Below are positions 14,741 through 53,952 of a DNA stretch of 64,000 nt, piece after piece. This DNA comes from Candidatus Omnitrophota bacterium (lineage in GTDB: Bacteria; Omnitrophota; Gorgyraeia; Zapsychrales; Fredricksoniimonadaceae), in assembly GCA_015233675.1 (NCBI GenBank), contig JADFXH010000002.1:14794-78793 (forward strand), read 5' to 3'. The position numbers were made by a program, and so were the translations under genes. Below the pieces are notes generated by a model. The model saw only the letters and a program-made list of their open reading frames with translations. It made no database searches and was not told the origin of the DNA. How positions within the stretch are numbered: position 1 is the stretch's first letter; every line of letters starts with the position of its first letter.

Positions 14741-14799
14741 GGGCGTTGGCCCAACCTAATCAATGGAAAAGCTCACGGAATTTTAAGGAAGGGGCGTGT

Positions 14800-15168: not shown

Positions 15169-15170
15169 CC

Positions 15171-25301: not shown

Positions 25302-25302
25302 A

Positions 25303-25806: not shown

Positions 25807-25817
25807 AAAGGCCTTAA

Positions 25818-26591: not shown

Positions 26592-27141
26592 GGTTAGCGA
26601 TGACAATGCAAAGGCATGGCTTGCCGGAGGAGTTTTCAAAACAATGAGGTATAGAGCTTTCAAAAGAAATGCTATCGCGTTTATCCAATACAAATTTTTC
26701 ATTACCTAGATAGCAGGTCAGACGTCCGTTAATGACATAGATCCATTTTTCGTAATTTCCTATCAGGGGTGAATGTTCCCATACTGTTTTACCACCGACT
26801 TCCAGGAGCATTTCTAAGGCCAAAAAAGACCGGCTGGGTGAGCTGATCACATTGGCTTGTACCTTATCATTATAGGTATATTCATCTAACCGTTCATCCT
26901 TTCTAATTATCAGCCTGCCTTCTAATTCAGTGTCCTTGATCAGTTTTTCCAAAGGAATACCAATGGCGCAGCAAATTTTTAATATAGAAGAAAACTTGGC
27001 AATATCTCCTTCTTCAATCCTTTGGAGGGTCCTGTAGCTAAGAGCTTTCTTGCCAAACACGGCAACGCCACGGTCAAACACATTTTGCAAGCTTAATCCC
27101 AAATCCTGGCGTATAAATTTAATCTTTTCGTGTATTTTCAT
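26578..27141 (-). CDS. XRE-family HTH regulator with C-terminal cupin domain
   Basis: N-terminal HTH_3-like region (IRQDLGLSLQNV...SYRTLQRIEEG). C-terminal cupin barrel (WIYVINGRLTCYLG...PHCFEN). The 3' end overlaps the REC-REC gene by 14 nt. Confidence 0.8.
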   Translation of the reverse strand: MKIHEKIKFIRQDLGLSLQNVFDRGVAVFGKKALSYRTLQRIEEGDIAKFSSILKICCAIGIPLEKLIKDTELEGRLIIRKDERLDEYTYNDKVQANVISSPSRSFLALEMLLEVGGKTVWEHSPLIGNYEKWIYVINGRLTCYLGNEKFVLDKRDSISFESSIPHCFENSSGKPCLCIVIANPKHF

Positions 27142-27148
27142 CTCTTAA

Positions 27149-27177
27149 AGAATAGCGTAAATTAAGGTATTCGTCAA
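27149..27177 (-). promoter_or_regulatory. Candidate promoter of the XRE-cupin gene (leaderless-type)
   Basis: The minus strand reads TTGACG-N17-TATTCT, with the -10 element ending 7 nt before the ATG. No SD. Confidence 0.4.
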
Positions 27178-27210
27178 GACAAAATTTAACTATTTTAAGA
27201 TAGTTTTGTC
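27178..27210. promoter_or_regulatory. Inverted repeat GACAAAA...TTTTGTC abutting the XRE -35 (candidate operator); a third half-site lies at 27274-27280
   Basis: GACAAAATTTAACTATTTTAAGATAGTTTTGTC. TGACAAAA recurs at 27273-27280. Confidence 0.35.
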
Positions 27211-27294
27211 ATAATTATTTTAATATTTTATGGTAAATATCGTAATATTAATTATTGCAATATGTTACATTATGACAAAATATGATATGTTTGC

Positions 27295-27323
27295 TTGATT
27301 ATTGTCGTATTAGATGGTATATT
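27295..27323 (+). promoter_or_regulatory. Candidate promoter for the small-ORF pair
   Basis: TTGATT-N17-TATATT, preceded by TGG. It lies about 60 nt upstream of the SD AAAGGAGG. Confidence 0.4.
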
Positions 27324-27380
27324 TTCTAATATAGGGATATCAATGCATCTTTACATTACTAGAAAGGAGGAATAAGGCCT

Positions 27381-27554
27381 ATGTTAATAGAAATTATCCA
27401 AAGATTTGCTGAAACTAAGACAATTCTGGCTTTGCCTTTATTCTTAATGACCGCTTTTGGAATTACAGGGCATAAAATAAAGGAGAATGATCAAAATTTA
27501 TACAATATAGCACCAGGAGATAATTTTCCTTATGGAATAATGTCTAAAAACTAA
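27381..27554 (+). CDS. Small protein (57 aa) with one hydrophobic segment, unannotated in ORF track
   Basis: MLIEIIQRFAETKTILALPLFLMTAFGITGHKIKENDQNLYNIAPGDNFPYGIMSKN. The SD AAAGGAGG lies 9 nt upstream. Confidence 0.4.
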   Translation: MLIEIIQRFAETKTILALPLFLMTAFGITGHKIKENDQNLYNIAPGDNFPYGIMSKN

Positions 27555-27595
27555 AAAAGTCATTTGAACTGTTAAATATAAGGGAGGATTAACAA

Positions 27596-27823
27596 ATGAA
27601 AGTTCTATTGATACTTCACAGTGAGCAGGATCCGGGTGCTGGGCTAATTGTCGCCGTAAAAGAAAGGTCAACAAAGGACAGGGTGCTTGCTTTATTAGAA
27701 GAAAACAGAGAACGCGAGGCTTTTGATCTTTTGAAAAAGAAAGCAGTGCCGCAGATGTATCTTGCTCCGGGCCAAAAGCCAAGAGAAGCTATTGTAACTC
27801 TCATAGAGGACGACTTGCGTTAA
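27596..27823 (+). CDS. Small hypothetical protein (75 aa)
   Basis: The SD GGGAGG lies 8 nt upstream. I recognise no family. Confidence 0.5.
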   Translation: MKVLLILHSEQDPGAGLIVAVKERSTKDRVLALLEENREREAFDLLKKKAVPQMYLAPGQKPREAIVTLIEDDLR

Positions 27824-27902
27824 TTAAAGATTTTTTAAAGCAAGAATTTACAAATTTATCATTTCAAAAGGCTTTATTTTGTTGGTATACTAAAAAATTA
27901 TT

Positions 27903-28523
27903 ATGCCGCAATGTGAGAAATTAAAACTGCTCCTTGTAGAAGATGAGCCTGATACCTGTGAGACTTTTCAGTCTTATTTTGAAAAGAGAGGCTTTGTTGT
28001 TTTGACTACAGACAGCGGGCGAGAAGCCCTTTGTGTCATCAAATCATCCAAGCCGGACGTTGTCATGCTGGATATTACCTTGAGAGACGAAAATGGCGTC
28101 GATGTTTTAAAAAAATTGCGCGGTTATGACAAAGATACCAAGGTCATCATGGTTACCGGACAACAGTATTCGGATGAGGAAATTGAAAAGATTAAAAGTA
28201 TGGGATTAAGCGGCTATTATGAAAAGCCGGTCCTGCTTGGGGATGTTGCAAAAAGGATTTTTGAGGTTACCGGTTTAGAAGAACCACAGCCCTTGTTGTT
28301 TGAGAAAAAGGCAAAACGTAGAACATATTCATTTGAGGATGATTGCACCCATGATTTAAAAAATTTAGTGGGGATTATCAGTCAGAAATGTGAAAATTTT
28401 ACTTTGGGGATCAAAGATGGTATATACAAATCCCCAAAAGAGAGGGCGCAAAGATTTGCCGTGCTTATGGACGATATCCAGGAAACAGTCAAAAGAGGCA
28501 AGAAGTTTCTAAAGGAGATATGA
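27903..28523 (+). CDS. Response-regulator receiver fused to a DHp/H-box-like C-terminal segment (no ATPase domain)
   Basis: REC module (LLLVEDEPD...MLDITL...KP). C-terminal CTHDLKNLVGII resembles a HisKA H-box. Confidence 0.7.
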   Translation: MPQCEKLKLLLVEDEPDTCETFQSYFEKRGFVVLTTDSGREALCVIKSSKPDVVMLDITLRDENGVDVLKKLRGYDKDTKVIMVTGQQYSDEEIEKIKSMGLSGYYEKPVLLGDVAKRIFEVTGLEEPQPLLFEKKAKRRTYSFEDDCTHDLKNLVGIISQKCENFTLGIKDGIYKSPKERAQRFAVLMDDIQETVKRGKKFLKEI

Positions 28524-28553
28524 ATCCCCAAAACTTTTTTTCTACAAGTTAAA

Positions 28554-28580
28554 CAGGTTCTAACATCCTCTCGCCAGTGA
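28554..28580 (+). repeat. 27-nt direct repeat, left copy (partner at 35900-35926)
   Basis: CAGGTTCTAACATCCTCTCGCCAGTGA versus CAGATTCTAATATCCTCCCGCCAGTGG, 23/27 identical. Confidence 0.7.
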
Positions 28581-28589
28581 CACATAACA

Positions 28590-28801
28590 CTTGACATCCA
28601 CCTCCTTCATTTTATAATTAGATGCTTTATAAGGCGTTGTATATGAGCATAATACTTTGTAACTTTTAACAACGACGAGAAGAGCCTATTTTTAACAATG
28701 GCATGGCCAATCTTTTTGATTCGTCGTCTGGTGCCCCAAGGCCATGTTGCTGATGGTAAACTTAAGTGTTAGATCTCCTGTGGAAAAAATGTCTAAAGTG
28801 G
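28590..28801 (+). promoter_or_regulatory. Promoter-bearing conserved leader element, copy 1 (partner at 32099-32310)
   Basis: TTGACA(28591)-N16-TATAAT(28613), followed by about 185 nt that are highly similar to 32128-32310. The similarity ends in ATGTCTAAAGTGGC. Confidence 0.65.
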
Positions 28802-28865
28802 CTGGCGTGTTATCCACTATGAGATCGGTGACCCTATTTCGCTTCGCCCTCGGTGGCCAAGCAGG

Positions 28866-29331
28866 CAGGCTGTGATGCCATCTGTATCGTCAACGCTTCG
28901 ATATTGAGTTCTTTGCGTTCAAAAACACTGGATGCTGGTGCTGGTCGCATATAATGCCGTCACCCTTGTGTCCTGTACGCATTCTCAGAGCTTCCGACGT
29001 AATATTGATTACTTCCGTCGCAAGGTGCCATTAAAAAATTTACAGTTGCTGACTCGGGTTAGCGTTTAATTTTGCCAAACTCAAATTGGTTATTTAGAGC
29101 AACATGATATTCAGACGCGCAATCTTTTTGCCGGTAATCTATTGCGGCAGCCTTGCTTTGATGGCATGAAAGACGGTATTGATTATCGTGTTATAGGAAA
29201 CCTGAAGAATACGGAAAATATTATGCGTGATACATTCTGGATCGGGGGTTTATCCCGGCTTGTCTCAGAGAGCTTTGGAGTATATAGTTGATACTATACA
29301 TGTTTTCCTTAAAGAGGCTAACGCAAGTTAG
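28866..29331 (+). pseudogene. 5'-truncated, frameshifted remnant of an rfbH/ddhC-type 3-dehydrase
   Basis: 29083-29331 reads QIGYLEQHDIQTRNLFAGNLLRQPCFD...IMRDTFWIG(frameshift: extra G)VYPGLSQRALEYIV, paralogous to the C-terminus of the intact gene at 52573-53952. Upstream fragments (SFRRNIDYFRRKV) are interrupted by stops and deletions. Confidence 0.7.
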
Positions 29332-29345
29332 CAGGGGCGTCTGAA

Positions 29346-30227
29346 ATGAAAAAAGTAAAAGTTGGCATTATTGGAACAGGGAATATTGGCACGGATCTGT
29401 TGATCAAGGTGCAAAGGTCGGAGATCTTAGAATGCGGTCTTTTTGCCGGTAAGAATCCTGATTCAGTTGGGATCAGAAGAGCGGAGAAAATGGGCGTCCG
29501 CACTTCTTTTAATTCAATTAAGGAAATCCAGGATGACCCGGATTGCTGCGCGATCGTGTTTGACGCCACTTCCGCTCAAGTACATTCTTTTAATGCCCCT
29601 ATTCTGACAAAGCTGGGCAAATTTGTGGTTGATCTTACACCATCTTCCATTGGAAAAATGTGCGTTCCGGTCGTTAACCTTAAGGAATGTCTAAATTCCG
29701 TTAATGTTAATCTTATTACCTGCGGCGGGCAAGCCACAATTCCTATAGCCTATGCCTTGATAAAAGCGCATCCTGAAATTGGATATATAGAAGTTGTAGC
29801 CAGTATCGCTTCAAAATCAGCTGGTTCCGGGACCAGGGCGAACATTGATGAATATGTTCTGGCGACCAAGGAGGCTGTCAGGATTTTTACCGGAGTGGAT
29901 CAAGCCAAAGCAATTATTATATTAAATTCCGCGGAGCCACCTGTTTTTATGCGCAATACGGTTTACGCGAAGATCGAAAAGCCAAATCTGGAAAAAATTA
30001 CCGAACAAGTCTTGATCATGGCGCAAAAGATACAAAAATATGTTCCAGGGTACAAGATTGTTCTCGGGCCTGTTGTGGAAAATAACCGCGTTACGACCAT
30101 GGTTGAGGTGGCGGGGAGGGGGGATTTTCTTCCAAAATACTCCGGCAATCTGGACATTATTACCTGCGCGGCAGTAAATGTTGCCGAAGAGTTTGCCAAG
30201 AAGAAAATTCTTAGACTAAAGGATTAA
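29346..30227 (+). CDS. Acetaldehyde dehydrogenase (acetylating), DmpF/MhpF family
   Basis: GIIGTGNIGTDL Rossmann motif. Catalytic-Cys context ITCGGQATIP. About 290 aa. Confidence 0.85.
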   Translation: MKKVKVGIIGTGNIGTDLLIKVQRSEILECGLFAGKNPDSVGIRRAEKMGVRTSFNSIKEIQDDPDCCAIVFDATSAQVHSFNAPILTKLGKFVVDLTPSSIGKMCVPVVNLKECLNSVNVNLITCGGQATIPIAYALIKAHPEIGYIEVVASIASKSAGSGTRANIDEYVLATKEAVRIFTGVDQAKAIIILNSAEPPVFMRNTVYAKIEKPNLEKITEQVLIMAQKIQKYVPGYKIVLGPVVENNRVTTMVEVAGRGDFLPKYSGNLDIITCAAVNVAEEFAKKKILRLKD

Positions 30228-30232
30228 AATTT

Positions 30233-31264
30233 ATGACTAAAGATATCATTTTTTTTGATTCCACCTTACGGGACGGGTCTCACGCCATCGGCCATAAATT
30301 GACGGTGGACAATATCAGGAACTATTGCACAGGGATCGATGGTTCCGGATTGCACGTGGTCATAGTAGGACATGGCAATGGTTTGGGAGCATCTTCTTTG
30401 CAGATCGGGCTGTCAGCTTTACCAGATCAGGAGATGCTAACAACTGCCAGAAAAGCATTAAAGAAAACAAAGCTGGGCGCATTTTTGATCCCGGGTCTGG
30501 GAACCATAAAAGACAATCTTGCCCCAGCTATCGACCTGGGGGTCGATCTTGTGTGCGTGGCTTGCCACTGTACGGAGGCAGATGTTACCGGTCAGCATAT
30601 TGACTATGTTAGGAAAAGAGGGAAAGATGTTTATGGCGTATTAATGATGTGCCACATGGCAGCGAAAGAGAAATTATTAATGGAAGCCAAGAAAATGCAA
30701 AGCTATGGCGCGTTAGGGGTGATTTTGATGGATTCCGCAGGGGCTTTTGATCCGAACATGCTGGAAGAGACTGTAAGTTTTTTATCCAAAAAGCTGGATA
30801 TCCCGGTGGGATTTCACGGGCATAACAATTTGGGGTTAGCCGTTAGTAATTCCTTAACTGCCATAAGGTCTGGAGCCAAAATTATTGATGGAACGATCCG
30901 GGGCTTTGGGGCTGGGGCCGGCAATTGCCAACTCGAGGTCTTTATCGGGTTATTATCAAGAATGAAGATAGAAACAGGCGTTGATCTTTATAAGCTGATG
31001 GATGTAAGTGATGGGGTCGTGGCTAAAATTATGCACAAGGCCCAGGAAATAGATTCAGTATCTTTGACCAGCGGGATGGCAGGGGTTTTTTCCGGCTTTG
31101 CTCCCTATGTAAAAAAAGCTGCAGAACGTTTTTCTGTTGATCCGCGGGATATTTTCATTGCCTTAGGCAAAAGGAAGATAGTCGGGGGACAAGAAGATTT
31201 TATTATCGATGTGGCTTTAGAAATAGCTAATAAAAAAGCCAAAGACCAGAATTTGTCCTTTTAA
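30233..31264 (+). CDS. 4-hydroxy-2-oxovalerate aldolase, DmpG/MhpE family
   Basis: DSTLRDGSHA and FHGHNNLGLAVSN metal-binding motifs. Adjacent to its usual DmpF-type partner. Confidence 0.85.
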   Translation: MTKDIIFFDSTLRDGSHAIGHKLTVDNIRNYCTGIDGSGLHVVIVGHGNGLGASSLQIGLSALPDQEMLTTARKALKKTKLGAFLIPGLGTIKDNLAPAIDLGVDLVCVACHCTEADVTGQHIDYVRKRGKDVYGVLMMCHMAAKEKLLMEAKKMQSYGALGVILMDSAGAFDPNMLEETVSFLSKKLDIPVGFHGHNNLGLAVSNSLTAIRSGAKIIDGTIRGFGAGAGNCQLEVFIGLLSRMKIETGVDLYKLMDVSDGVVAKIMHKAQEIDSVSLTSGMAGVFSGFAPYVKKAAERFSVDPRDIFIALGKRKIVGGQEDFIIDVALEIANKKAKDQNLSF

Positions 31265-31282
31265 AATAGAGGGAGATCTTGA

Positions 31283-32035
31283 ATGTTAAAGGAATCATTA
31301 AAAAATGGGGGGGTTGCCTTAGGAACATGGTGTGATTTGCCCAGCCCCGCCGTTGTGAATGTATTGGCTAAGGCTAAACTGGATTTTGTCATTATTGATA
31401 TGGAACATGGCCCCATGGACTTCAAAATAGCCCAGGACATGCTCATGGCGGCTGAATGCGAAGGAACAGAGGCTCTGGTGCGCGTACCACGCTTGGATGA
31501 ATCAGATATATTGCGGTCTTTGGACCTGGGGGCGGCAGGCATCATTGTGCCACATATTGAAAGCGTAGAGGATAGAAAGAAGGTGGTCGCTTACAGTAAA
31601 TTCCCTCCGGTTGGCCAAAGAGGGTTTAATCCTTATGTGCGTGGCGGTGGATATCGCAAAGCAGACCGGGAATATTGTGTCATTCAGAATGAAAGAATAA
31701 TTGTAGGGTTGATCATAGAAGGAGTAGATGCTTTAGCCAATTTAGAACGTATCATTGATGATCCCAACGTTGATCTAATTTATATTGGAACGTATGATCT
31801 GTCATTAGCCTTAGGGATGCCTGGGGATGTAGGCCATCCTAAGGTCTTAAAAGCACTGGAAAAAGCGGCGGCTAATGTGATCAAAGCTAAAAAAAGTGTC
31901 GGCTGCATGATCCATCAAGCTTCGGATCTGGCAAGGTTCAAAGAGTTGGGTATTCAGTTCATAACGTATAAGATAGATAGCGCGATTATCTATGACTCGG
32001 TGGCAAGCATTAAAAGGGAGTTTGATCGGCTATGA
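31283..32035 (+). CDS. HpcH/HpaI-family class II (pyruvate-dependent) aldolase
   Basis: The 250-aa TIM-barrel pattern LDFVIIDMEHGP...VRVP...IIVPHIES...IGTYDLS is typical of HpaI/YfaU aldolases. Confidence 0.8.
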   Translation: MLKESLKNGGVALGTWCDLPSPAVVNVLAKAKLDFVIIDMEHGPMDFKIAQDMLMAAECEGTEALVRVPRLDESDILRSLDLGAAGIIVPHIESVEDRKKVVAYSKFPPVGQRGFNPYVRGGGYRKADREYCVIQNERIIVGLIIEGVDALANLERIIDDPNVDLIYIGTYDLSLALGMPGDVGHPKVLKALEKAAANVIKAKKSVGCMIHQASDLARFKELGIQFITYKIDSAIIYDSVASIKREFDRL

Positions 32036-32103
32036 AACTGTCCGATTACATGGTTAAATTCTTAGAGGACAGGGGCGTTAAAGATGTTTTTATGCTTTCT
32101 TGA
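32032..32103 (+). pseudogene. 23-codon stub of a ThDP-enzyme N-terminus (recombination scar)
   Basis: MKLSDYMVKFLEDRGVKDVFMLS-stop parallels MRLCDYIAQFLVKQGVKDIFMLTGYG of the intact gene at 32379. Its ATG overlaps the aldolase stop (ATGA). The stub is cut off exactly where leader copy 2 begins. Confidence 0.7.
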
Positions 32104-32310
32104 CATCTACCGCGTTTATTTTATAATCAAATGCATAATAAATTTTTGCATATAAATGTAATACTTTATAAATTTTAACAATGACGAGAAGCGTCTATTT
32201 TTAAGCATGGCATGACTAATCTTTTTGATTCGTCGTCTGGTGACCAAAGGCCTGTTGCCGATGGTAAACTTCAGTGGTAGATCTCCTGTGAAAAGAATGT
32301 CTAAAATGGC
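32099..32310 (+). promoter_or_regulatory. Promoter-bearing conserved leader element, copy 2
   Basis: TTGACA(32100)-N16-TATAAT(32122), followed by the conserved core ...TTTTAACAATGACGAGAAG...AATCTTTTTGATTCGTCGTCTGGTG...GATGGTAAACTT...TAGATCTCCTGTG...ATGTCTAAAATGGC. Confidence 0.65.
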
Positions 32311-32392
32311 CCAACATTTGTTGGGCCAGCTCATGTTTAAGCTCCTGGTGCATGCCCGTCATATAGAAAGAGGGGCGGATGAGACTGTGTGA
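32297..32392 (+). CDS. Candidate 31-codon upstream ORF overlapping the ThDP-enzyme start
   Basis: MSKMAQHLLGQLMFKLLVHARHIERGADETV. Its first codons are conserved in copy 1 (28788). Its stop (32390-32392) lies 11 nt inside the downstream gene. A GGCCCAAC/GTTGGGCC hairpin at 32308-32327 lies within it. Confidence 0.25.
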   Translation: MSKMAQHLLGQLMFKLLVHARHIERGADETV

Positions 32393-34070
32393 TTACATTG
32401 CTCAATTTTTGGTCAAGCAAGGTGTAAAAGACATTTTTATGCTTACTGGCTACGGCGCTATGTATATGAACGATGCCATCCAGCAGTCAGGTATTAAGTA
32501 TTATGCCACTCGTAATGAAGCAACTGCGCCGATGATGGCCGAAGCCTATGCCCGCGTGCGCCAGTCCTTAGGTGCTGTGTGTGTTACTGCTGGACCGGGC
32601 GCAACCAATGCCATACCAGGGTTAGCGGAAGCTTTCGTAGACTCTGCCCCCATTTTAGTGCTCTCTGGTCAAGTTGAATCCAGGTATACCACTCACAAAA
32701 TAGGAATCCCTGGCTTGAGAACCTTTGGTTCCCCGGAAATCAATATTGTCCCTATTGTACAAAGCCTAACTAAATTTGCTGCAGTGGTTGAAGAGCCTTC
32801 GCAGATCCGTTATTTGTTGGAAAAGGCCGTCTATTATGCACTTTCCGGCCGTCCAGGGCCGGTGTGGCTGGATGTGCCTTTAGACATGCAACAGATGGAA
32901 ATTGATCCTTCCAGCCTTAAAGGATTTGTTCCGACCGCTGAATCCAATATTGGGGACATAGATAAATCTGTTAAGCAAGCATTTGAAATGCTATCCAGTG
33001 CAAAAAAGCCGTTGATCATCGCTGGTCATGGCATTCGGCAAGCCTGTTTGGCCAGCCAACTGCGTAGTTTGGTAGAGACCTTGAAGGTTCCGGTTATTTT
33101 TTCGCGGTTTGGTCAGGACCTGATGCCGCATTCGCACCCCTTTGTATTTGGACACGGAGGGGGCAAAGGTTCGCGTTACTGCAAAGCTATCATGAACCAG
33201 GCTGATGTAGTAGTATCTTTAGGTTGCCGGCTCGCCCCGCAATTTACTGGCCATGATTTTGAGGCCTTTGCCAAGGATGTCAAGATCATCATGGTCGATA
33301 TTGATCCAGCGGAACTGGAGAAACCGGGGATTCCACTGGCCCTAAAAATCCGCGCGCACCTGCGTCCATTCATGGATGCTTTGTTGAACGAGGTAAAATT
33401 ACAGCCTTCCGGAAATTGGGAAAGCTGGGTCAATACTTGCAGGGAATTTAAACAAAAAAATCCAATGGTCACGGTGGCATCTAAGCGTAATCCTATTGAC
33501 CTGTATTACTTCATGTACCGGTTAGGAGAACTTTCCGGGAAAAACCATGTCCTTGTTACAGATGCAGGTTCTAATTATTATGTTGGCGGACAGGTATGGA
33601 ATTTCGAAAGCGGCCAGCGCGAGATCATGTCAGGGACCAATGCAGCCATGGGGACTTCAATTCCTTTGGCCATTGGGGCGGCTGTGGCTGCGCCGGATTC
33701 CCAAATACTGGCTGTCACCGGGGATGGCTCCCTAGAACTTAACATCCAGGAACTTAAGACCATATCGCATTATAAATTAAATTTGAAGCTTTTCGTCATC
33801 AATAACGGCGGCTATGCGTCCATGCGTAAATGGCAGGACACTTATTTTGACGGACGGCGTATTGATACTGAGGAATCAACTGGTGCGGGGACGCTCAATC
33901 TCAAGCAGGTGGCCAAAGCATTTGATCTAGAGCATGTTTGCATTGAGCGCTATGAAGACATTGATGTCCAACTAAAAAAGATCATGTCGGATGATCGTCC
34001 ACTGTTCGTGGAAGTCATGACTGACAATAACCAAAAAATATTTGAAGCCTTTAAGGACAAAGATGGTTAA
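32379..34070 (+). CDS. Thiamine-diphosphate enzyme of the acetolactate synthase / YerE-like family
   Basis: Three-domain ALS-type layout. ThDP motif VTGDGSLELNIQEL...FVINNGGYASM. Confidence 0.85.
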   Translation: MRLCDYIAQFLVKQGVKDIFMLTGYGAMYMNDAIQQSGIKYYATRNEATAPMMAEAYARVRQSLGAVCVTAGPGATNAIPGLAEAFVDSAPILVLSGQVESRYTTHKIGIPGLRTFGSPEINIVPIVQSLTKFAAVVEEPSQIRYLLEKAVYYALSGRPGPVWLDVPLDMQQMEIDPSSLKGFVPTAESNIGDIDKSVKQAFEMLSSAKKPLIIAGHGIRQACLASQLRSLVETLKVPVIFSRFGQDLMPHSHPFVFGHGGGKGSRYCKAIMNQADVVVSLGCRLAPQFTGHDFEAFAKDVKIIMVDIDPAELEKPGIPLALKIRAHLRPFMDALLNEVKLQPSGNWESWVNTCREFKQKNPMVTVASKRNPIDLYYFMYRLGELSGKNHVLVTDAGSNYYVGGQVWNFESGQREIMSGTNAAMGTSIPLAIGAAVAAPDSQILAVTGDGSLELNIQELKTISHYKLNLKLFVINNGGYASMRKWQDTYFDGRRIDTEESTGAGTLNLKQVAKAFDLEHVCIERYEDIDVQLKKIMSDDRPLFVEVMTDNNQKIFEAFKDKDG

Positions 34071-34097
34071 ACGAGCAGGAAAGGAAATTGTTGATCA

Positions 34098-34919
34098 ATG
34101 AAGAATGAAATGATTATGGATGAGAGATCACGTTATCTTCGCAAACTTATTTTACAGGGATGGGAAGGGGCAAGGAAAGGACATATTGGCTCGGTGTTGT
34201 CCCTGGTAGAGATTCTTAGGGTCCTTTATGACGATATTATGAATTATCGCCCTCAAGAACCCTTATGGCCGGATAGGGATAGGTTTATTCTAAGCAAAGC
34301 CCACGGCTGCTTGGCATTATATGCTATCTTGGCGGACAAGGGTTTTATTGGAATAGATGAATTGAAAACATATTCTTTGGATGGCTCAAGATTGGTAGCA
34401 GCTTGTGAGTATAATACCGTGCCTGGCGTAGAGGTAACAACAGGCGCATTAGGGCATGGGCTTCCTATAGGGGTAGGGATGGCGCTTGCCGCCCGCATAC
34501 AAAAAAGGCCAAGCCGCGTTTATGTAGTAATGGGCGATGGGGAATTAAATGAAGGGTCGGTATGGGAAGCGGCATTGTATTCAGCACACCATAAATTATC
34601 GAATCTTACAGCCATCATTGATTATAATAAATTGCAGATTGCCGGGCCCAATGAAGAAATTATAGGCCTTGAACCATTAAAAGAAAAATGGGCCAGTTTC
34701 GGTTTTGCTGTTGAGGAAATCGACGGCCATGACGTTGATACCTTAAAGAAAACTTTAAAAAGATTGCCATTCTCCAAAGGGAAACCGTCGGTTGTTATAT
34801 GTCATACCATCAAAGGAAAAGGGATTGACTTTGTAGAAAATGATTATAAATGGCATTGGAAAAATAGTTTAGACGACGAAACGGTTTCAAGAATGAAGTC
34901 TTTATTGGAGGAAGAATAA
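34098..34919 (+). CDS. Transketolase, N-terminal (ThDP-binding) subunit
   Basis: GHIGSVLSLVEIL, DRFILSKAHG, and GDGELNEGSVWEA...IIDYN motif. Confidence 0.85.
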   Translation: MKNEMIMDERSRYLRKLILQGWEGARKGHIGSVLSLVEILRVLYDDIMNYRPQEPLWPDRDRFILSKAHGCLALYAILADKGFIGIDELKTYSLDGSRLVAACEYNTVPGVEVTTGALGHGLPIGVGMALAARIQKRPSRVYVVMGDGELNEGSVWEAALYSAHHKLSNLTAIIDYNKLQIAGPNEEIIGLEPLKEKWASFGFAVEEIDGHDVDTLKKTLKRLPFSKGKPSVVICHTIKGKGIDFVENDYKWHWKNSLDDETVSRMKSLLEEE

Positions 34920-35851
34920 TGCTTAACGCATTTAAAGATGCCATCTATGAAGCTGCAAAAAACGATAAGCGGATCATCCTCATGGTTACTGATAACGATA
35001 TCGGATTAAGCCATATGCAAGCTGAGATGCCCGATCAATATTTTGTCGAAGGTATTTCAGAGGCAAACACTATGGGGGTCGCCTCAGGCCTCGCTGCCGA
35101 TGGATTCATGCCTTTTATTATCAATATCGCCAGCTTTTTGGTCAGACGGAGCTATGAACAAATAGTCCTGGATGTTTGTTTGCAAAACAGGCCTGTAAGA
35201 TTGATAGGTATAGGGGGAGGATTCTCAATGGCACATTTGGGGACTACACATACCACCATTGAAGATATTGCTATCATGCGGGCTGTTCCTGAAATGACCG
35301 TTATTGCCCCCTGTGATGCCCTCGAAATGAAGAAACTAGTGCCTTCCATATTAAAATGGCCGAAACCTATTTATATAAGGCTTGCCAGGTACGGTAAACC
35401 CGTCGTCACTAAGGAAGAAAGCGATATTGATATTGGCAAAGCAGTAGTGCTCCGTCAGGCCTCTGCAGGCCATAAAAGCGTGCTTTTGATTTCCACAGGT
35501 GCCATGACTTCCCGTACAATTAAGACAGCTGAGGAGCTTCAAAATCTTGGAATTGAATCAACGGTCCTGCATCTTCATACGATAAAACCTTTGGATGAAA
35601 AGGCCATTATTGAACAGGCACGCCGAGTTCCCCTAGTCGTTACCATAGAGGATCATTCGATTATAGGCGGGTTAGGCAGCGCCTGTATGGGAGTCCTTAT
35701 GAATAATATGCATCCGGATCTTCCCCGGCTGCATTGCATAGGAGTGCCGGATAAATTTATTCATGTATATGGGACCCAAGAGTCTTTATTAAAAAGCGTA
35801 GGACTTGAGCCGTCACAAATGGCAAAGACAATCTACCAGCTCACTAAGTAA
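34919..35851 (+). CDS. Transketolase, C-terminal (pyrimidine-binding) subunit
   Basis: FVEGISEANTMGVASGLA and HTIKPLDEKAI motifs. Its start overlaps the N-subunit stop (TAATG). Confidence 0.85.
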   Translation: MLNAFKDAIYEAAKNDKRIILMVTDNDIGLSHMQAEMPDQYFVEGISEANTMGVASGLAADGFMPFIINIASFLVRRSYEQIVLDVCLQNRPVRLIGIGGGFSMAHLGTTHTTIEDIAIMRAVPEMTVIAPCDALEMKKLVPSILKWPKPIYIRLARYGKPVVTKEESDIDIGKAVVLRQASAGHKSVLLISTGAMTSRTIKTAEELQNLGIESTVLHLHTIKPLDEKAIIEQARRVPLVVTIEDHSIIGGLGSACMGVLMNNMHPDLPRLHCIGVPDKFIHVYGTQESLLKSVGLEPSQMAKTIYQLTK

Positions 35852-35899
35852 CTTCATGCCATTAATAAGAAGAATTTGAAAATTAATATTTCTTTTAGG

Positions 35900-35926
35900 C
35901 AGATTCTAATATCCTCCCGCCAGTGG
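35900..35926 (+). repeat. 27-nt direct repeat, right copy, followed by a degenerate copy of the leader promoter
   Basis: See 28554-28580. The downstream GTTACAT...TTTATACT (35940-35968) parallels TTGACAT...TTTATAAT of copy 1. Confidence 0.6.
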
Positions 35927-36026
35927 CCCCATATGTAACAGTTACATTAAGTAATCTTAGTTTATACTGGAGATTTTTGGGAAGATCTATTAAATTGCAG
36001 TATACGCGTTTGCTTCAGTATTTGTA

Positions 36027-36054
36027 TTGACATTGTTTTTGTATTTTATATAAT
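36027..36054 (+). promoter_or_regulatory. Candidate promoter of the winged-helix regulator / downstream glycan operon
   Basis: TTGACA-N16-TATAAT, the same 16-nt spacer as the leader promoters. Confidence 0.5.
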
Positions 36055-36072
36055 GTTCATTAATTGAACATT
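36052..36072. promoter_or_regulatory. Inverted repeat AATGTTCA-N5-TGAACATT overlapping the -10/+1 region (candidate operator)
   Basis: Perfect 8-bp arms between the -10 hexamer and ATG 36076 of the regulator gene. Confidence 0.45.
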
Positions 36073-36075
36073 CCT

Positions 36076-36648
36076 ATGAATGCCTCTAAAGACCCCCTTA
36101 ATGAACGCGATTTTGAATTGATCAATATTGTCGGTGGTCAATTAGCCTCTAACCAGCGCGACCTTTCCCGTTATATGAACCTTTCTTTAGGAATGACCAA
36201 TATGCTTTTAAAGCGTTTGGTTACTAAAGGTTATATCCGTATTAAACAGCTTGACCGTCGAAAAGTTGAATATTTCCTGACTCCAAAAGGATTTGCTGAA
36301 AAGATGCGCAAGTCTGTCAAATACACGCTAAAAACCATTAGTTCCATAGGTTTAATTAAAAAACAACTTTTAGATATTCTTGGAAATCTTTATGCAAAAG
36401 GCCATAGGAAATTTTATGTTTTGGGAGATTCGGATTTCGCTCAATTGGTGGAGAGCGCTTTAATACAGTCTCAATGGGGAGGGGTTGAAGTTGGCCGGGT
36501 TAAATCTTTATCGGAAAATCCTGATGGTTTGGTGCTTATTTGCAGGGAAGATGAAAACAGCCCGGAATTAAGCGGGGAGCGTTATGTGGATTTGATTAAA
36601 GAGTTAGCTAGCCGGGAGAATAACGAATTTGAAGCGGTAGAAAGGTAA
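36076..36648 (+). CDS. Winged-helix (MarR-like) transcriptional regulator with an uncharacterised C-terminal domain
   Basis: QRDLSRYMNLSLGMTNMLLKRLVTKGYIRIKQLDRRKVEYFLTPKG is a wHTH pattern. I prefer ATG 36076 to the TTG at 36064. Confidence 0.65.
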   Translation: MNASKDPLNERDFELINIVGGQLASNQRDLSRYMNLSLGMTNMLLKRLVTKGYIRIKQLDRRKVEYFLTPKGFAEKMRKSVKYTLKTISSIGLIKKQLLDILGNLYAKGHRKFYVLGDSDFAQLVESALIQSQWGGVEVGRVKSLSENPDGLVLICREDENSPELSGERYVDLIKELASRENNEFEAVER

Positions 36649-45893: not shown

Positions 45894-46624
45894 GCTTTGA
45901 GCAGGCAGTAATTTTTGCGGGGGGGCGCGGTGAACGGCTGAGGCCGTTGACGGATATGATCCCCAAACCAATGGCACCGGTAAATGGACGGCCGTTTGTG
46001 GACTATCTATTAAGGATGCTTCGAGATGCAGGTATTAGGCGTGTTGTTTTTTTGCTGGGATACAAGGCCGAAAGCGTGATTGATCATTACAGGAAACAGA
46101 GCATACCTGGTCTTGAGATTGACTATTCAATTGGCAAGGAAGAAGATCAGACAGGGCGCCGGTTGATCAATGCATATGAAAAATTGGAAGATAAATTTTT
46201 GCTTTTGTACGGAGATAATTATTGGCCGGCGCCGCTGGAGAAGATGAAAAAGAATTTTGAGCATTTACAGGTTCCTTTGATGACGACAGTCTTTAGTAAT
46301 AAAAAAGGGACCGGAGAGTATGGTTTTGGGAACAATGTGATGGTTGATCCAAGCGGCAGGGTGAAGGCCTATGATAAAAGCCGCCGGCTGTCAGGGCTCA
46401 ATGGAGTGGACATTGGTTTTTTTTTGATCGATAAGAACATTATTGATCCCAATGAAAACGGGAACATCTCTTTTGAGGAAGTTATTTTAGCAAAGATCGC
46501 ATCTGAAGGAAAATTGGGGGCTTTTCTAACAGATGAGCAGTATTATTATATTACCTCGTTTGACAATCTGCAGAGGTTCGAACAGATTATCAGGCAGAAA
46601 GTGATCCCGGGAAGGATTGAATGA
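45890..46624 (+). CDS. Sugar-1-phosphate nucleotidyltransferase (HddC/GmhD-like)
   Basis: AVIFAGGRGERLRPLTDMIPKPMAPV signature. Overlaps the upstream stop by 4 nt. Confidence 0.75.
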   Translation: MSFEQAVIFAGGRGERLRPLTDMIPKPMAPVNGRPFVDYLLRMLRDAGIRRVVFLLGYKAESVIDHYRKQSIPGLEIDYSIGKEEDQTGRRLINAYEKLEDKFLLLYGDNYWPAPLEKMKKNFEHLQVPLMTTVFSNKKGTGEYGFGNNVMVDPSGRVKAYDKSRRLSGLNGVDIGFFLIDKNIIDPNENGNISFEEVILAKIASEGKLGAFLTDEQYYYITSFDNLQRFEQIIRQKVIPGRIE

Positions 46625-47550
46625 TGGAACATCAGGATAAGATTAAGATTGCACAAGAAGTGTTAAGGCTCAGGCTTAGCCAGATATTGGTCAATGACAG
46701 GTATAAAAAGGGTGATTTCAAGGTGCCTATTCATCTGGCCCTGGGACATGAAGCGATCGCCGTGGCGGTGAGTGCTATTATGGAGGGGAAAGACCAGCTG
46801 GTTTTGACCCACCGGAATATTCATTACAATTTGGCTAGGGCAGGCTCGTTAAAAGGCGAGTTAGATGAATATTATCTAAAGCCGCAAGGGCTGGCTCGCG
46901 GGCTGCTGGGTTCGATGAATTTGGATAATGATAACCGCGGGGTGGTTTATTCTTCCAGCATTTTAGGTAATAATTTACCGGTGGCGGCCGGCCTGAGTTT
47001 GGGTAATAAGGTCAAATCCCAGGAAAGCATCGTCATAGTAGTCACCGGTGACGGGGCCATTGAAGAAGGAAGTTTTTATGAAAGTTTGGTTTTTCTAAAG
47101 AGCAATGGATTATCAGAGCTCATCATTATCGAAAACAATCAATGGTCATTGGCTACGCGCATTGAGGAGAGACGATGCCCCATTGATCTTGCCAAATTCG
47201 CAGATTCTTTAGGGGTCCGTTATGAAATTTTTAGTTCTAATAATCCTTTTGAATATATTTCAAAATTAGCGGATTACCGTCAATGGTCTTTGAGCAATAA
47301 AGCTCCTGTTTGTGTTGAAGTGCAGCTGACCACCTTAGGCCATTGGAGAATGAAGACCGATGGATATCCTGAGGGAAAGTTTATTAATTATCACGCCGGC
47401 CCGGCACCAGACGTGGATAGCCAAAAGGATTATATCTTTACGTCGACAAAAGAGGACGTTGTCTTCGTGCTCCGGGAGCATTTCAAAAAGGAAGAGATCG
47501 AGGCCATGGCGGATCGTATATTATCCCAGTTACAAAAGGAAATAGCATGA
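46621..47550 (+). CDS. ThDP-dependent 2-oxoacid dehydrogenase E1 alpha-like subunit
   Basis: HLALGHEAIAV and ThDP motif TGDGAIEEGSFYES...IIENNQWS. Confidence 0.8.
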   Translation: MMEHQDKIKIAQEVLRLRLSQILVNDRYKKGDFKVPIHLALGHEAIAVAVSAIMEGKDQLVLTHRNIHYNLARAGSLKGELDEYYLKPQGLARGLLGSMNLDNDNRGVVYSSSILGNNLPVAAGLSLGNKVKSQESIVIVVTGDGAIEEGSFYESLVFLKSNGLSELIIIENNQWSLATRIEERRCPIDLAKFADSLGVRYEIFSSNNPFEYISKLADYRQWSLSNKAPVCVEVQLTTLGHWRMKTDGYPEGKFINYHAGPAPDVDSQKDYIFTSTKEDVVFVLREHFKKEEIEAMADRILSQLQKEIA

Positions 47551-48515
47551 AATACGTAGAATACATTAATAAGCTCATTAAAGACGAGGTTCTCAGGGCC
47601 GATCGTATGGTCATATTCGGACAAAATATCAATGCCGGTTCATGCCTCTCGGGATTGACCAAGAACCTTAAAGTTAAAAAAGGCAATTTGATCATCAATA
47701 CCCCTAATTGCGAGAATTCCCTGGTAGGTATCGGCTTCGGGGCTATGATGAACGGGGTATCCGCTGCCTTTATGATGAAGCAGCAAGATTTCCTTTTGCT
47801 AGGCATCGACCAATTGGTCAATACGTATAATATCATCCGTCAAAGATCCGCGGGAGAAGGGTCATTTACCATCATGACCATTATCGTAGACAATGGTTAT
47901 GAGGGCCCCCAGTCACGATTAAATCATTTTGGTGATTTTTGTTCGATCGCGGGTATTCAGGGCTTTACCATCACCAATACGGCGGATGCGAAAGAGATCA
48001 TCTCCTCACAGTTCAATGCGCCGGGATTTCGTATCATCGGCATCAGCCAGCGTTTGTTTAAACAAGAGATCATGGAGATGAATGTCCTGAGCGTGAGCCC
48101 TGACCGTTCGGTATTTCAATATGCCCAGGGCAAACAGGCGACCATTATATGTTTCAATCTATCCTTACCTTATGGGGTGGTAATGGCCGGCCGTCTTAAA
48201 GAAAAAGGATTATCAGCATCGTTATTCTCGGTGAATAGTCCGGTCCCTGTTAACTGGGATGAGCTGGTCCATGATATAAACAAAACAGGGACATTGATTC
48301 TGATCGATGACCTTAAAAGCAGGAATTTGGCCAGCGATAATCTTTTAGTCAAGGTCCTGGGACATTGTACGTTGAAGCAAAAGTTCATTATCCGTAGAAG
48401 GCCTGAGGAAAATGTGTTTAGTCCTCACCATGATCAGATGGTCATTGACTATGACCATATCGTTGGGCAATTGGCAACGGAATGGCAGGGGGGCTTAAAG
48501 TCCGCTGAGATCTAA
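47547..48515 (+). CDS. E1 beta-like (transketolase pyrimidine-binding) subunit
   Basis: VIFGQNI...NTPNCENSLVGIGFGAMMNG pattern. Translationally coupled to the alpha subunit (ATGA overlap). Confidence 0.75.
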   Translation: MKYVEYINKLIKDEVLRADRMVIFGQNINAGSCLSGLTKNLKVKKGNLIINTPNCENSLVGIGFGAMMNGVSAAFMMKQQDFLLLGIDQLVNTYNIIRQRSAGEGSFTIMTIIVDNGYEGPQSRLNHFGDFCSIAGIQGFTITNTADAKEIISSQFNAPGFRIIGISQRLFKQEIMEMNVLSVSPDRSVFQYAQGKQATIICFNLSLPYGVVMAGRLKEKGLSASLFSVNSPVPVNWDELVHDINKTGTLILIDDLKSRNLASDNLLVKVLGHCTLKQKFIIRRRPEENVFSPHHDQMVIDYDHIVGQLATEWQGGLKSAEI

Positions 48516-52572: not shown

Positions 52573-53952
52573 ATGAAGAGTGATTTGGATATTTTTGATT
52601 TGGAGCTAAAAGGTGTCGTTGACGCGAAGGAAGCTGACGGGATTCTTAGAAAACTGATCGGGAAGGCAATTGAAAAACATTATCAATACGTTCACAAACC
52701 CCGTTTAGATTTTGTGCCCGGCAAATCGCCTGTTCCTTTGGCTGGCCGTGTTTATGATGCCGAGGAAATGAAGATGCTGGGAGAAACAGTGCTTGATTTC
52801 TGGTTGACGGGGGGAAGATTTGAGAAGCAATTTGAAAAAGAATTTACTCGTTTTTTAGGGGAACGGTTTTGTGTGCTGACCAATTCAGGCTCTTCGGCCA
52901 ATCTTTTAGCGGTATCAGCATTAACATCGCATTTATTGAAAGACCGTCAGCTTAAGCCCGGTGATGAAGTGCTGACGGTTGCCGCTGGTTTTCCAACGAC
53001 AATAGCCCCCATTGTGCAAAACGGACTGGTCCCGGTGCTGGTTGATATTGATACGGGAACATATAATGTAAACGTCGACCAACTTGAGGGGGCCGTTTCT
53101 ACTAAGACCAAAGCCATCATCCTGGCGCACACCTTGGCTAATCCATTTAATCTCCAACGCGTACAGGCTCTAGCAGAGAAACATCATTTGTGGTTGATTG
53201 AGGATAGCTGCGATGCCTTGGGGTCGCTGTATCAAGGGCGTCCGGTCGGAACTTTTGGACATATGGCCACATTTAGCTTTTATCCCGCCCACCATATTAC
53301 TATGGGGGAAGGCGGAGCTGTTGTAACGAATGACCCCATCTTAAAGAAGGCGATCGCTTCTTTTCGTGATTGGGGCAGGGACTGTGATTGCGACACGGGC
53401 AAGGACAACACTTGCGGTAAAAGATTCTCCTGGCAGCTGGGGGATTTGCCCCAAGGCTATGACCATAAGTATATTTATTCTCATCTTGGGTACAATCTGA
53501 AATTAACGGATATGCAAGCGGCCATTGGCGTTGCTCAGATGAAGAAGTTAGGCTCTTTTATACAAACCAGGCGTAGTAATTGGCAACACCTTTTAGACAA
53601 GTTAAAAGATTTGGAGGAGTATTTTATTTTACCGCGCGCGGAAGAATTTTCAGAGCCAAGTTGGTTTGGTTTTCTTTTGACCATTCGTCCGGCATCTCCT
53701 TTTAAAAGAATTGATCTGGTGAGGTTTCTGGAAGAACACAAGATTGCAACACGGATGCTGTTTGCCGGCAATATTACCAAACAGCCGGGATTTAAGAATA
53801 TTCCCTGCCGGGTGCCGTTTGATCTTAGTAATACAAATTTTACTATGAGCAATACATTTTGGGTAGGGGTATATCCGGGAATATCACATGTTATGTTGGA
53901 CTATACTGCCGGACAGATCAGGGATTTTGTCAACCGTTTAAGGAAGGTGTAG
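52573..53952 (+). CDS. rfbH: NDP-4-keto-6-deoxy-sugar 3-dehydrase, E1 type (RfbH/DdhC; PMP- and [2Fe-2S]-dependent)
   Basis: DegT/DnrJ/EryC1 fold. YPAHHIT has His in place of the PLP lysine. The cysteine spacing is exactly C-X57-C-X1-C-X7-C (SCDALG...[17 protein letters not shown]). Confidence 0.8.

Follow-up and report, generated by a model that had tools for sequence, protein, structure and literature searches.

What are six genes for carbon–carbon bond-forming enzymes doing together at the head of a surface-glycan locus, and how did they come to lie there? The question is raised by a 64-kb stretch of Gram-negative chromosomal DNA (hereafter the window) from the metagenome-assembled genome (MAG) of an uncultivated Candidatus Omnitrophota bacterium. 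A preliminary description of this DNA listed an acetaldehyde dehydrogenase (dmpF), a 4-hydroxy-2-oxovalerate aldolase (dmpG), an HpcH/HpaI-family aldolase (hpcH), a thiamine diphosphate (ThDP) enzyme resembling acetolactate synthase (ALS) and YerE (ThDP563) and a split transketolase (tktN and tktC), and took the six genes for a single cassette. We find all six open reading frames (ORFs) where that description placed them, intact and in the families assigned, with complete catalytic motifs in DmpF, DmpG, HpcH and ThDP563, and the roughly 28 kb of co-directional sugar-nucleotide genes 3' of the block are likewise present, all on the + strand (Pfam, run on ORFs of at least 150 amino acids (aa), about 50 of the 57 in the window, and NCBIfam). 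The block is, however, less tightly packed than was described, as a 343-bp gap (32036–32378) divides it into two transcription units. We propose that the block is, as we read its sequence, two modules spliced at the head of the glycan locus and not one cassette. This mosaic architecture, together with the assignment of the region to branched or extended sugar biosynthesis, we consider highly probable. The best explanation overall, which we favour with moderate confidence, is a recombinational mosaic of two ThDP-based C–C-coupling sub-pathways for unusual deoxy-sugars.

The promoters provide the first insight into this division. Exactly three perfect TTGACA-N16-TATAAT sites occur in the 64 kb (at 28591, 32100 and 36027), all intergenic and on the + strand, where 0.06 would be expected, and none of 100 shuffles had three. 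The first two lie in a 213-nt direct repeat, 83.6% identical, which heads both modules and is the only repeat at E < 1e-3 when the window is compared with itself by BLAST; we refer to its copies as the promoter-leaders PL_A and PL_B (Table 1). Because its terminal reading frame matches the aminotransferases of two homologous loci, L007 and L002, the repeat corresponds to a perfect sigma-70-type promoter, a 5' untranslated region (5'UTR) and the start of an aminotransferase gene, and this gene start is, judging from its sequence, present twice and dead in both copies.

Several other properties of the leaders were considered. Rfam gives nothing credible, either for the whole window at gathering level or for the two leaders at E-value level, and as the folding of the two copies is inconsistent (z of −0.3 for copy A and of −3.7 for copy B, where a single hairpin drives the value) we make no claim for a structured RNA. 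A leader peptide in the 5'UTR was rejected, its frame being broken in copy A, and so was an ops/JUMPstart-like element, on a reading of the sequence with no scan run. The 21-nt core of the promoter-leader has no match in the genome or metagenome contig collections, the source genome lying outside both. A perfect 9-bp hairpin with a 4-nt loop (32307–32328) is situated inside the dead aminotransferase stub, 50 nt 5' of ThDP563; no T-run follows it and it has no counterpart in copy A. Between the end of the third promoter and the annotated TTG start of a MarR/wHTH-like gene there are 9 nt, so that either this transcript is leaderless or the true start is an ATG about 14 nt further 3'.

Remnants of genes are seen at both junctions. 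The preliminary description noted 820 bp of gene debris in front of dmpF, and two pieces of it can be recognised, namely an aminotransferase remnant of 13 residues, with frameshifted traces on its 3' side, and the tail of an rfbH/DegT-like gene; a permissive tblastn of the debris gives nothing beyond these two. The L002 aminotransferase to which the former was compared precedes the ThDP gene in its own locus. The rfbH tail is 46–52% identical to the RfbH of the window and to the DegT genes of loci L008–L011, and fits operon variants such as that of L024, where rfbH lies directly 5' of dmpF. At the other end of module 1, hpcH runs into the first codons of a different ThDP gene, which encodes a 601-aa protein elsewhere (ThDP601). 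Once a one-residue offset is allowed, this stub agrees with the start of the L008 ThDP601 protein at 20 of 22 positions (a manual count; a script without the offset gives 1/23), and it matches the window's own ThDP563 at 13 of 23. The aminotransferase stub that follows PL_B aligns with residues 4–34 of the class I/II aminotransferase of L007 (BLASTP E 4e-6), a protein whose gene is directly 5' of the homologous ThDP gene there.

Read from 5' to 3', the first part of the region thus comprises a short repeated box (see below), PL_A, the aminotransferase fragment, the rfbH tail, dmpF, dmpG, hpcH and the ThDP601 stub, and the second part PL_B, the aminotransferase stub, ThDP563, tktN, tktC, the second copy of the box, the third promoter and the MarR-like gene. 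Neither the six genes nor their junction recurs elsewhere as a set: a ThDP563-type gene follows hpcH in none of 29 HpcH loci, and DmpFG are found in one of 80 ThDP563 loci, so that what had been described as a single six-gene cassette is better regarded as a chimera. The one exception, L117, has DmpF and DmpG 60% and 59% identical to those of the window in the same operon, after ThDP-TktN-TktC and an aldo-keto reductase (AKR), and lacks HpcH. It is the only other locus found with DmpFG beside the 563-aa ThDP type, and its full order (2884–16961 of JGI Ga0163144_10002999) is Wzm/Wzt, a GMD-like short-chain dehydrogenase/reductase (SDR), E1 alpha, E1 beta, ThDP569, TktN, TktC, AKR, a methyltransferase-like gene, DmpF, DmpG, SDR and an RmlC-like gene.

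The block had been thought to be bounded by a 27-nt direct repeat, and a unitary six-gene cassette to have been acquired or exchanged there by site-specific or homologous recombination. The repeat does exist (at 28554 and 35900, 23/27 identical, or 26/31 in a longer version of 31 nt, the box referred to above) and its copies occupy both bounding intergenic regions, each a few tens of nucleotides past a stop codon. However, an identity of 84% over 31 nt is at the level of chance: when the window is shuffled with its dinucleotides preserved, 4 of 20 shuffles have an equal or better direct repeat as the top match of an all-against-all comparison (a first shuffle test of the box was circular, its pattern having been derived from its own two copies). 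Because four shuffles equal or beat it, the repeat alone is evidence of nothing, and the only extra weight comes from its position. Acquisition at these repeats is further disfavoured by the lack of any recombinase, integrase or transposase domain among the ORFs covered by Pfam, and by a composition that is not anomalous, with GC of 0.444–0.451 in the block and 0.436–0.444 in the flanks and GC at third codon positions (GC3) likewise equal to the flanks; an att-bounded islet was rejected on the same grounds. A relative of the flanking response regulator might seem to speak for such an event, since synteny with it is shared over 24903–28523 and stops at the stop codon of that gene. But past this point L121, the sole relative (50% identical), has housekeeping genes and no glycan locus at all, and as it lacks the entire locus it is the whole glycan locus that is variable, not the block alone. 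With an internal junction marked by gene remnants and a second promoter copy, and with no recurrence of the six genes among 29 HpcH and 80 ThDP563 loci, we judge a single mobile cassette to be very improbable, and the 27-nt repeats have no demonstrable part in the block.

Other observations concern the box itself. Among 120 fetched loci, matches to the box or the leader are at chance level only, and a role as a terminator was set aside, no terminator-like site being reported at either copy. Elsewhere in the window a 49-nt intergenic direct repeat (5310–5358 and 6538–6586, 39/49 identical) flanks ychF (5437–6513); it outscores the 27-nt repeat and all 20 shuffles.

The origin of module 1 can be seen from its relatives, whose contexts were drawn from homologue loci together with a profile-based scan in which each GTDB species was represented by one genome. 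Homologues of HpcH with 60–80% identity are present in other Omnitrophota, in Elusimicrobia and even in Altiarchaeales, and they lie in a conserved operon that reads RfbF-like NTP-transferase, RfbG-like 4,6-dehydratase, often an MBL-fold protein, DmpF, DmpG, HpcH, ThDP601, SDR and RfbH-like dehydrase, flanked by glycosyltransferases, Wzy and an initiating transferase, and in which the start of the 601-aa ThDP gene overlaps the hpcH stop. The order DmpF-DmpG-HpcH-ThDP601 is found in at least 11 genome loci, and part of it on 5 further short contigs, the hosts being Omnitrophota, Cloacimonadota, Elusimicrobia, Desulfobacterales, Gammaproteobacteria, two phyla of the Candidate Phyla Radiation (CPR) and DPANN-type archaea. 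The DmpF and DmpG of the window are 79% identical to the L008 and L012 proteins (79–80% for the trio of DmpF, DmpG and HpcH), and collinearity with L008 at the nucleotide level, at 76% identity, extends from 29339 to 32096 and then stops. The window is not clearly the sister of L012, which leaves a relative-rate comparison of the three proteins with L012 and outgroups without a usable reading. ThDP601 is YerE-like, its best solved relatives being JanthE (8RPH; PMC12188165) with 412 bits and PpYerE with 270 bits, ahead of any acetohydroxyacid synthase (AHAS). Two canonical loci, L025 (17341–19000, Bilamarchaeaceae) and L027 (2765–4500, Magasanikiibacteriota), have a split transketolase within 10 kb, whose N subunit is 44–45% identical to that of the window and thus closer than the transketolases beside other ThDP563 genes (38–43%).

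These contexts bear on whether the aldolases of module 1 might be catabolic, that is, whether DmpFG and HpcH break down 4-hydroxy-2-oxo acids that arise from the catabolism of aromatic compounds or deoxy-sugars and only happen to lie beside a glycan locus. DmpF and DmpG do pass NCBIfam equivalog cutoffs built on meta-cleavage enzymes, and they share with DmpFG, BphIJ and MhpEF the channelling-domain architecture (DmpG_comm, AcetDehyd-dimer). They differ from those systems in their glycan-locus context, in the biosynthetic direction that we infer and in having no meta-cleavage partner genes: neither the window nor the homologue loci encode a 2-oxopent-4-enoate hydratase, a hydrolase or a dioxygenase, and the window has no transporter partner. 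The HpcH aldolase, which scores below every NCBIfam equivalog cutoff, belongs to a distinct glycan-locus subfamily, and nearly all loci of that subfamily (at least 47% identity, with readable flanks) have these genes between genes for nucleoside diphosphate (NDP) sugars and a YerE-like ThDP gene. As ErwI and ErwJ, members of the same families as DmpG and DmpF, work biosynthetically (PMC9306805), we regard a catabolic system as scarcely credible. The earlier view that these genes are biosynthetic and glycan-linked is borne out, and all the homologue contexts looked at are loci of the sugar-nucleotide or O-antigen-like kind.

Module 2 has relatives of its own. The best PDB match of ThDP563 is the YerE-like JanthE (283 bits, with 231 bits for E. 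coli AHAS I), and its confirmed relatives in JGI metagenomes number 289, those encoded in at least 80 metagenome glycan loci sharing 53–69% identity with it. ThDP563 is not a housekeeping AHAS, reaching 353 bits with the AHAS (IlvB) equivalog whose cutoff is 538 and having no adjoining ACT-domain small subunit. A split transketolase lies downstream in all of the first six ThDP563-type contexts, every one a sugar-nucleotide locus, and is directly adjacent in five. Of the 68 metagenome loci that extend far enough past the ThDP gene, 25 have the transketolase as its immediate neighbour; these belong for the most part to the closest relatives (at least 60% identity), though many are at 51–59%, and in the others an HddA-like GHMP kinase and a DegT gene are found close by. 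The gene just 5' of the ThDP563 type varies, being PanB-like, a class I/II aminotransferase or an E1 alpha/beta pair. PanB-like enzymes and class I/II aminotransferases make alpha-keto acids. The intact arrangement aminotransferase-ThDP-TktN-TktC is seen in L002 and L007. Other window genes also have homologues in ThDP563 loci, namely the GHMP kinase (39–43%), an SDR at 43879 (52%), a gene without assigned function at 44682 (47%), an NTP-transferase (42%), an RmlC-like gene and E1 alpha/beta. These genes lie downstream in the window, and their homologues indicate that module 2 belongs with the resident locus. On L003 (JGI Ga0207952_1000011, a 378-kb contig) some 20 very short ORFs stand in front of a further ThDP-transketolase glycan locus (1–6400); only one of them has a Pfam match, and there is an IS1595 fragment. 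The ThDP protein of this contig carries the name 'Anaplasmataceae bacterium' at NCBI, which is odd for that label.

The simplest reading of these sequences is a history in two steps. The resident head of the locus would have been a promoter-leader, aminotransferase, ThDP563 and transketolase unit, as in L002 and L007, and a 3-kb internal piece of a YerE-type operon would then have come to rest with a copy of the promoter-leader on either side. This could have happened by integration via leader homology, by tandem duplication or by exchange between strains.

What might these enzymes make? It had been suggested that keto-acid units are joined to NDP-keto-sugars, and for this there is published precedent in erwiniose (ErwJ/ErwI/ErwE) and caryophyllose (MMAR_2331/2332) biosynthesis (PMC9306805, PMC12247030). 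In the erwiniose cluster of Pectobacterium atrosepticum SCRI1043, a BphJ/DmpF-type dehydrogenase (ErwJ) and a BphI/DmpG-type aldolase (ErwI) are clustered with the ThDP carboligase ErwE, the reductase ErwF and genes for CDP-4-keto-3,6-dideoxyglucose; ErwE does not accept pyruvate, and its donors are 4-hydroxy-2-oxopentanoate or related gamma-hydroxy keto acids, which it joins to a ketone mimic of this sugar (PMC9306805). The donor, made there from acetyl-CoA and pyruvate, is the same as in the scheme proposed below. The likeness to the erwiniose cluster is one of protein family and gene content, and consists in a DmpF/DmpG-type pair beside an ALS/YerE-like ThDP enzyme and an RfbH-type dehydrase in a lipopolysaccharide or glycan locus. 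Unlike the erwiniose cluster, the Omnitrophota-type operon has an extra HpcH aldolase and the MBL-fold protein, and in the window only 23 codons are left of the cognate YerE-like gene, an ErwF-like reductase is missing, and a different ThDP enzyme with a split transketolase is found instead.

The additional aldolase has parallels elsewhere. In the clusters for caryophyllose (Mycobacterium marinum aldolase MMAR_2331 and ThDP enzyme MMAR_2332), for a C6-branched sugar of Rhodopseudomonas palustris and for gastriose (MygI/MyGE), an HpcH/citrate-lyase-family aldolase feeds a longer, hydroxylated alpha-keto acid to a YerE-like enzyme, and the products, which are known, carry a C6–C7 branch on a 3,6-dideoxy-4-keto sugar; in caryophyllose and gastriose it is this aldolase that supplies the longer acids (PMC9306805). 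DmpFG and a transketolase, by contrast, are not reported in those clusters. The ALS-family ThDP fold is common to YerE of Yersinia pseudotuberculosis (YerE/YerF, yersiniose A), to JanthE and to PpYerE (5AHK), and among solved structures both ThDP601 and ThDP563 match JanthE best. YerE itself uses pyruvate as donor and makes a C2 branch, whereas ThDP563 is a separate subfamily whose score with JanthE is barely above that with E. coli AHAS I. The statement that no pathway with this gene set has been described therefore stands in part: the combination of DmpF, DmpG, ThDP enzyme and RfbH was published in 2022 (PMC9306805), and the two-aldolase operon and the trio of ThDP563 and split transketolase are undescribed.

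The following scheme is modelled, from DmpF to the ketoreductase, on the published homologous pathways for erwiniose and caryophyllose. DmpF would reduce acetyl-CoA to acetaldehyde, which DmpG would join to pyruvate to give 4-hydroxy-2-oxopentanoate, and HpcH would provide the same acid or a longer gamma-hydroxy-alpha-keto acid. The YerE-like ThDP enzyme would then decarboxylate the acid and add the acyl anion to C4 of an NDP-4-keto-3,6-dideoxyhexose, an acceptor for which the RfbH encoded at 52573 is a likely source, and a ketoreductase would complete the branch. By analogy, the canonical Omnitrophota-type operon fits this acyl-branched-sugar scheme as a two-aldolase variant. As to the window, both aldolase types (DmpG with DmpF, and HpcH) are present, intact and motif-complete; of the acceptor genes rfbH is intact at 52573, with a second rfbH only as the remnant at 29085; and no YerF/ErwF-like ketoreductase adjoining the ThDP gene was found in the window.

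As its own ThDP601 is gone, the question arises of what the aldolase trio would now serve. A plausible explanation is that it feeds its donor keto acid to ThDP563, in a donor-module swap that would alter the side chain of the sugar. This supply is suggested by three intact, motif-complete genes behind a promoter that has stayed perfect, by the destruction of the aminotransferase that normally accompanies ThDP563, and by the precedent of L117; we put it forward tentatively, as something that may well be so. A different possibility is that dmpF-dmpG-hpcH is a functionless left-over of recombination, in the course of decay, and that only ThDP563, the transketolase and the downstream locus are in use. 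The fragment has indeed lost ThDP601, the SDR, rfbH and the upstream rfbF/rfbG-like genes, pseudogene pieces flank it, and the six-gene combination is essentially unique to the window. However, the three consecutive ORFs (2.67 kb) have no stops or frameshifts and retain all catalytic motifs, whereas the neighbouring remnants are truncated or frameshifted, the promoter in front of them has been kept at 12/12 despite 16% divergence of the repeat around it, and in L117 DmpFG share one operon with the ThDP563/transketolase module. Decay without function is on this evidence unlikely, although it deserves to be weighed seriously.

A number of points nevertheless weigh against the supply of ThDP563 by the trio and against the wider reading of the block. 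The cognate ThDP601 and its adjacent SDR are absent: no homologue of the 294–298-aa SDR that follows ThDP601 in L008–L016 is present in the window at E < 1e-10, and the other SDRs of the locus are not orthologous to it. Neither an RfbF nor an RfbG equivalog was found among the ten window sugar-nucleotide enzymes scanned with NCBIfam, and Pfam scans of the locus show no E3 (AscD-type) reductase domain. ThDP563 is only 39–40% identical to ThDP601, and its PDB scores place it between the YerE-like enzymes and AHAS. The transketolase of the window is only 30–43% identical to the transketolases beside other ThDP563 genes, and to our knowledge no member of the ThDP563 family or of the associated transketolases has been characterised. 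Finally, as DmpFG occur in only one of 80 ThDP563 loci, the hand-over of the donor leans on L117 and on the three intact genes.

The split transketolase is itself unusual. Its two subunits score 247 and 186 bits where the transketolase equivalog has a cutoff of 488. In TktC, GIGGGFSMAHLGTTHTT replaces THAG..GEDG.SHQ, which reads ATHAGLTVGEDGASHQA in a genuine split transketolase; THxG..GEDG is replaced by GIGGGFSMAHLG, and of the equivalents of E. coli R358, H461, D469 and H473 only that of H473 is kept, with other residues in the positions of His461 and Asp469 and the N-terminal Arg missing. Loss of the first His is common to transketolases beside other ThDP563 genes. In E. coli TktA, H461 binds the substrate phosphate and D469 reads the C2-OH of the acceptor. 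As TktC lacks the equivalents of both, an acceptor that is non-phosphorylated or nucleotide-linked is plausible but unproven, and the enzyme may carry out a further transfer of a C2 unit (hydroxyacetyl or ketol) onto such a non-canonical acceptor.

We also considered whether the transketolase could instead be an ordinary pentose-phosphate enzyme that makes sedoheptulose-7-phosphate for the heptose branch of the locus and does not modify sugars. The locus does contain heptose-pathway-like genes (SIS/GmhA-like at 48550, HldE-like at 38596, an HddA-like kinase at 51568 and an HddC-like gene at 45890), GHMP kinases accompany ThDP563 loci, and TktN is closest to the genuine split transketolase 6YAK. 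The altered THxG..GEDG motif and phosphate-site residues of TktC and the scores far under the equivalog cutoff, on which a housekeeping transketolase was rejected, speak against such a role, as does the direct coupling of the pair to ThDP563, seen likewise in 25 other loci, and we think it distinctly unlikely.

Precedents for sugar-modifying ThDP enzymes of this kind come from antibiotic pathways. E1 alpha/beta enzymes make C2 sugar branches, and split transketolases have been proposed for hydroxyacetyl branches (PMC12247030). The split transketolases of miharamycin and amipurimycin, like AviB1/B2 and KbDH (alpha-KADH2), lie among NDP-sugar genes (PMC12247030), and the window transketolase lacks the sugar-phosphate-binding residues, as those of the miharamycin/amipurimycin type do. 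All of these belong to actinomycete antibiotic pathways, the action of a transketolase on a keto-sugar is itself only proposed (PMC12247030), and coupling of the transketolase to an ALS-like enzyme, as seen here, sets the window apart. A search of the literature gave nothing specific on the trio of ThDP enzyme and split transketolase.

Taken to its full extent, the argument would make the ThDP563-transketolase module an undescribed and widespread pathway and the window a natural donor-module swap. The module, which often has an aldo-keto reductase, an HddA-like GHMP kinase, an NTP-transferase and E1 alpha/beta alongside it, would build or extend a higher-carbon or doubly branched NDP-sugar skeleton by two successive ThDP-dependent couplings; its donor module would be interchangeable (PanB-like, aminotransferase or E1 alpha/beta), and a YerE-type aldolase trio would have replaced the aminotransferase here. 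That both parts hold together we consider rather doubtful.

Table 1. Features of the block and of its surroundings (positions in the window).
Feature	Position	Strand	Remarks
Box copy 1, 31 nt	28549..28579	+	26 nt past response-regulator stop, 11 nt 5' of PL_A -35 hexamer
PL_A	28590..28802	+	-35 28591-28596, -10 28613-28618, ~170-nt 5'UTR, aminotransferase ATG 28789
Aminotransferase remnant SGWRVIHYEIGDP, 13 residues	28797..28835	+	class I/II; 11/13 identical to residues 29-41 of L002 aminotransferase
Module 1, 3-kb internal fragment rfbH'-dmpF-dmpG-hpcH-ThDP601'	29085-32100	+	rfbH and ThDP601 as remnants only
rfbH/DegT-like 3' remnant, last ~76 codons	29085..29316	+	one frameshift near 29245; ends 30 nt before dmpF
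dmpF-type acetylating acetaldehyde dehydrogenase, 293 aa	29346..30227	+	TIGR03215, 386 bits vs cutoff 282; ITCGGQA catalytic Cys motif
dmpG-type 4-hydroxy-2-oxovalerate aldolase, 343 aa	30233..31264	+	TIGR03217, 392 bits vs cutoff 286; DSTLRDGSH and HGH metal motifs
HpcH/HpaI-family class II pyruvate aldolase, 250 aa	31283..32035	+	H42, R67, E146, D172 invariant
ThDP601 remnant MKLSDYMVKFLEDRGVKDVFMLS then stop, 23 codons	32032..32100	+	ATG overlaps hpcH stop as ATGA, as in intact operons
Module 2: promoter-leader, ThDP563, split transketolase	32099-35851	+	
PL_B, second promoter-leader copy	32099..32310	+	-35 32100-32105, -10 32122-32127
Aminotransferase stub MSKMAQHLLGQLMFKLLVHARHIERG..., 31 codons	32297..32392	+	runs into ThDP563 start
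ThDP563, three-domain ALS/YerE-like ThDP carboligase or decarboxylase, 563 aa	32379..34070	+	Glu47, GDG-X26-NN
Split transketolase N-terminal (ThDP-binding) subunit, TktN	34098..34919	+	best PDB match 6YAK, 231 bits
Split transketolase C-terminal (Pyr and C-terminal domain) subunit, TktC	34919..35851	+	non-canonical active-site motif GIGGGFSMAHLGTTHTT
Box copy 2, 31 nt	35895..35925	+	44 nt past tktC stop
Degenerate promoter-like site	35941-35968		3' of box copy 2
Third perfect promoter	36027..36054	+	heads MarR/wHTH-like gene and downstream sugar-nucleotide genes
MarR/wHTH-like gene	36064-36648	+	follows third perfect promoter
E1 alpha/beta-type ThDP pair	46621..48515	+	additional ThDP system; also found with ThDP563 in many other loci
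RfbH, intact, NDP-4-keto-6-deoxyhexose 3-dehydrase type	52573..53952	+	690 bits vs cutoff 423

The motif residues entered in Table 1 for DmpF, DmpG, HpcH and ThDP563 presumably have the roles that are generally known for DmpFG, HpaI and ThDP enzymes. Elsewhere in the window, the upstream genes include those for LptE, MurJ, Lnt, a lipid A acyltransferase, SecA and PrfB, and the downstream set comprises heptose-type activation genes, the E1 alpha/beta pair, RfbH (56–58% identical to the RfbH of canonical operons) and a legionaminic-acid-like nonulosonate set with NeuB last. The last of these (56640–63925) resembles a legionaminic-acid-type pathway in its content, a LegB-like dehydratase (470 bits, cutoff 475), a protein with CBS and NTP-transferase domains, a GFO/IDH/MocA oxidoreductase, a CMP-transferase, an SDR and NeuB. 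The locus encodes all three ThDP classes tied to sugar C-branching in the literature, ALS/YerE-like, transketolase and alpha-KADH2. Five ORFs of 205–778 aa have no Pfam match (10849–13185, 18661–20115, 40289–40906, 44682–45893 and 58692–59459); the fourth of these has its 47% identical homologue in the ThDP563 locus L002.

There are thus three things here that appear to be undescribed, the two-aldolase form of the operon in uncultivated phyla, the module in which ThDP563 is paired with a split transketolase, and what looks like a donor-module swap. A point of method is that the short flanking repeat was misleading, whereas the duplicated promoter-leader and two gene stubs were informative. Candidates for biocatalysis are the 601-aa and 563-aa families and the atypical split transketolase, as there is demand, in the synthesis of tertiary alcohols, for ThDP enzymes able to take ketones and functionalised keto acids. 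The organism is uncultivated and current understanding is not overturned, but the enzymes are concrete and testable. If the interpretation is correct, acyl-branched-sugar chemistry, known from a few Proteobacteria and mycobacteria, would be widespread and would reach Omnitrophota, Elusimicrobia, Cloacimonadota, CPR and DPANN archaea as a two-aldolase operon, and glycan diversity in such organisms would arise by swaps of keto-acid donor modules in front of ThDP carboligases.

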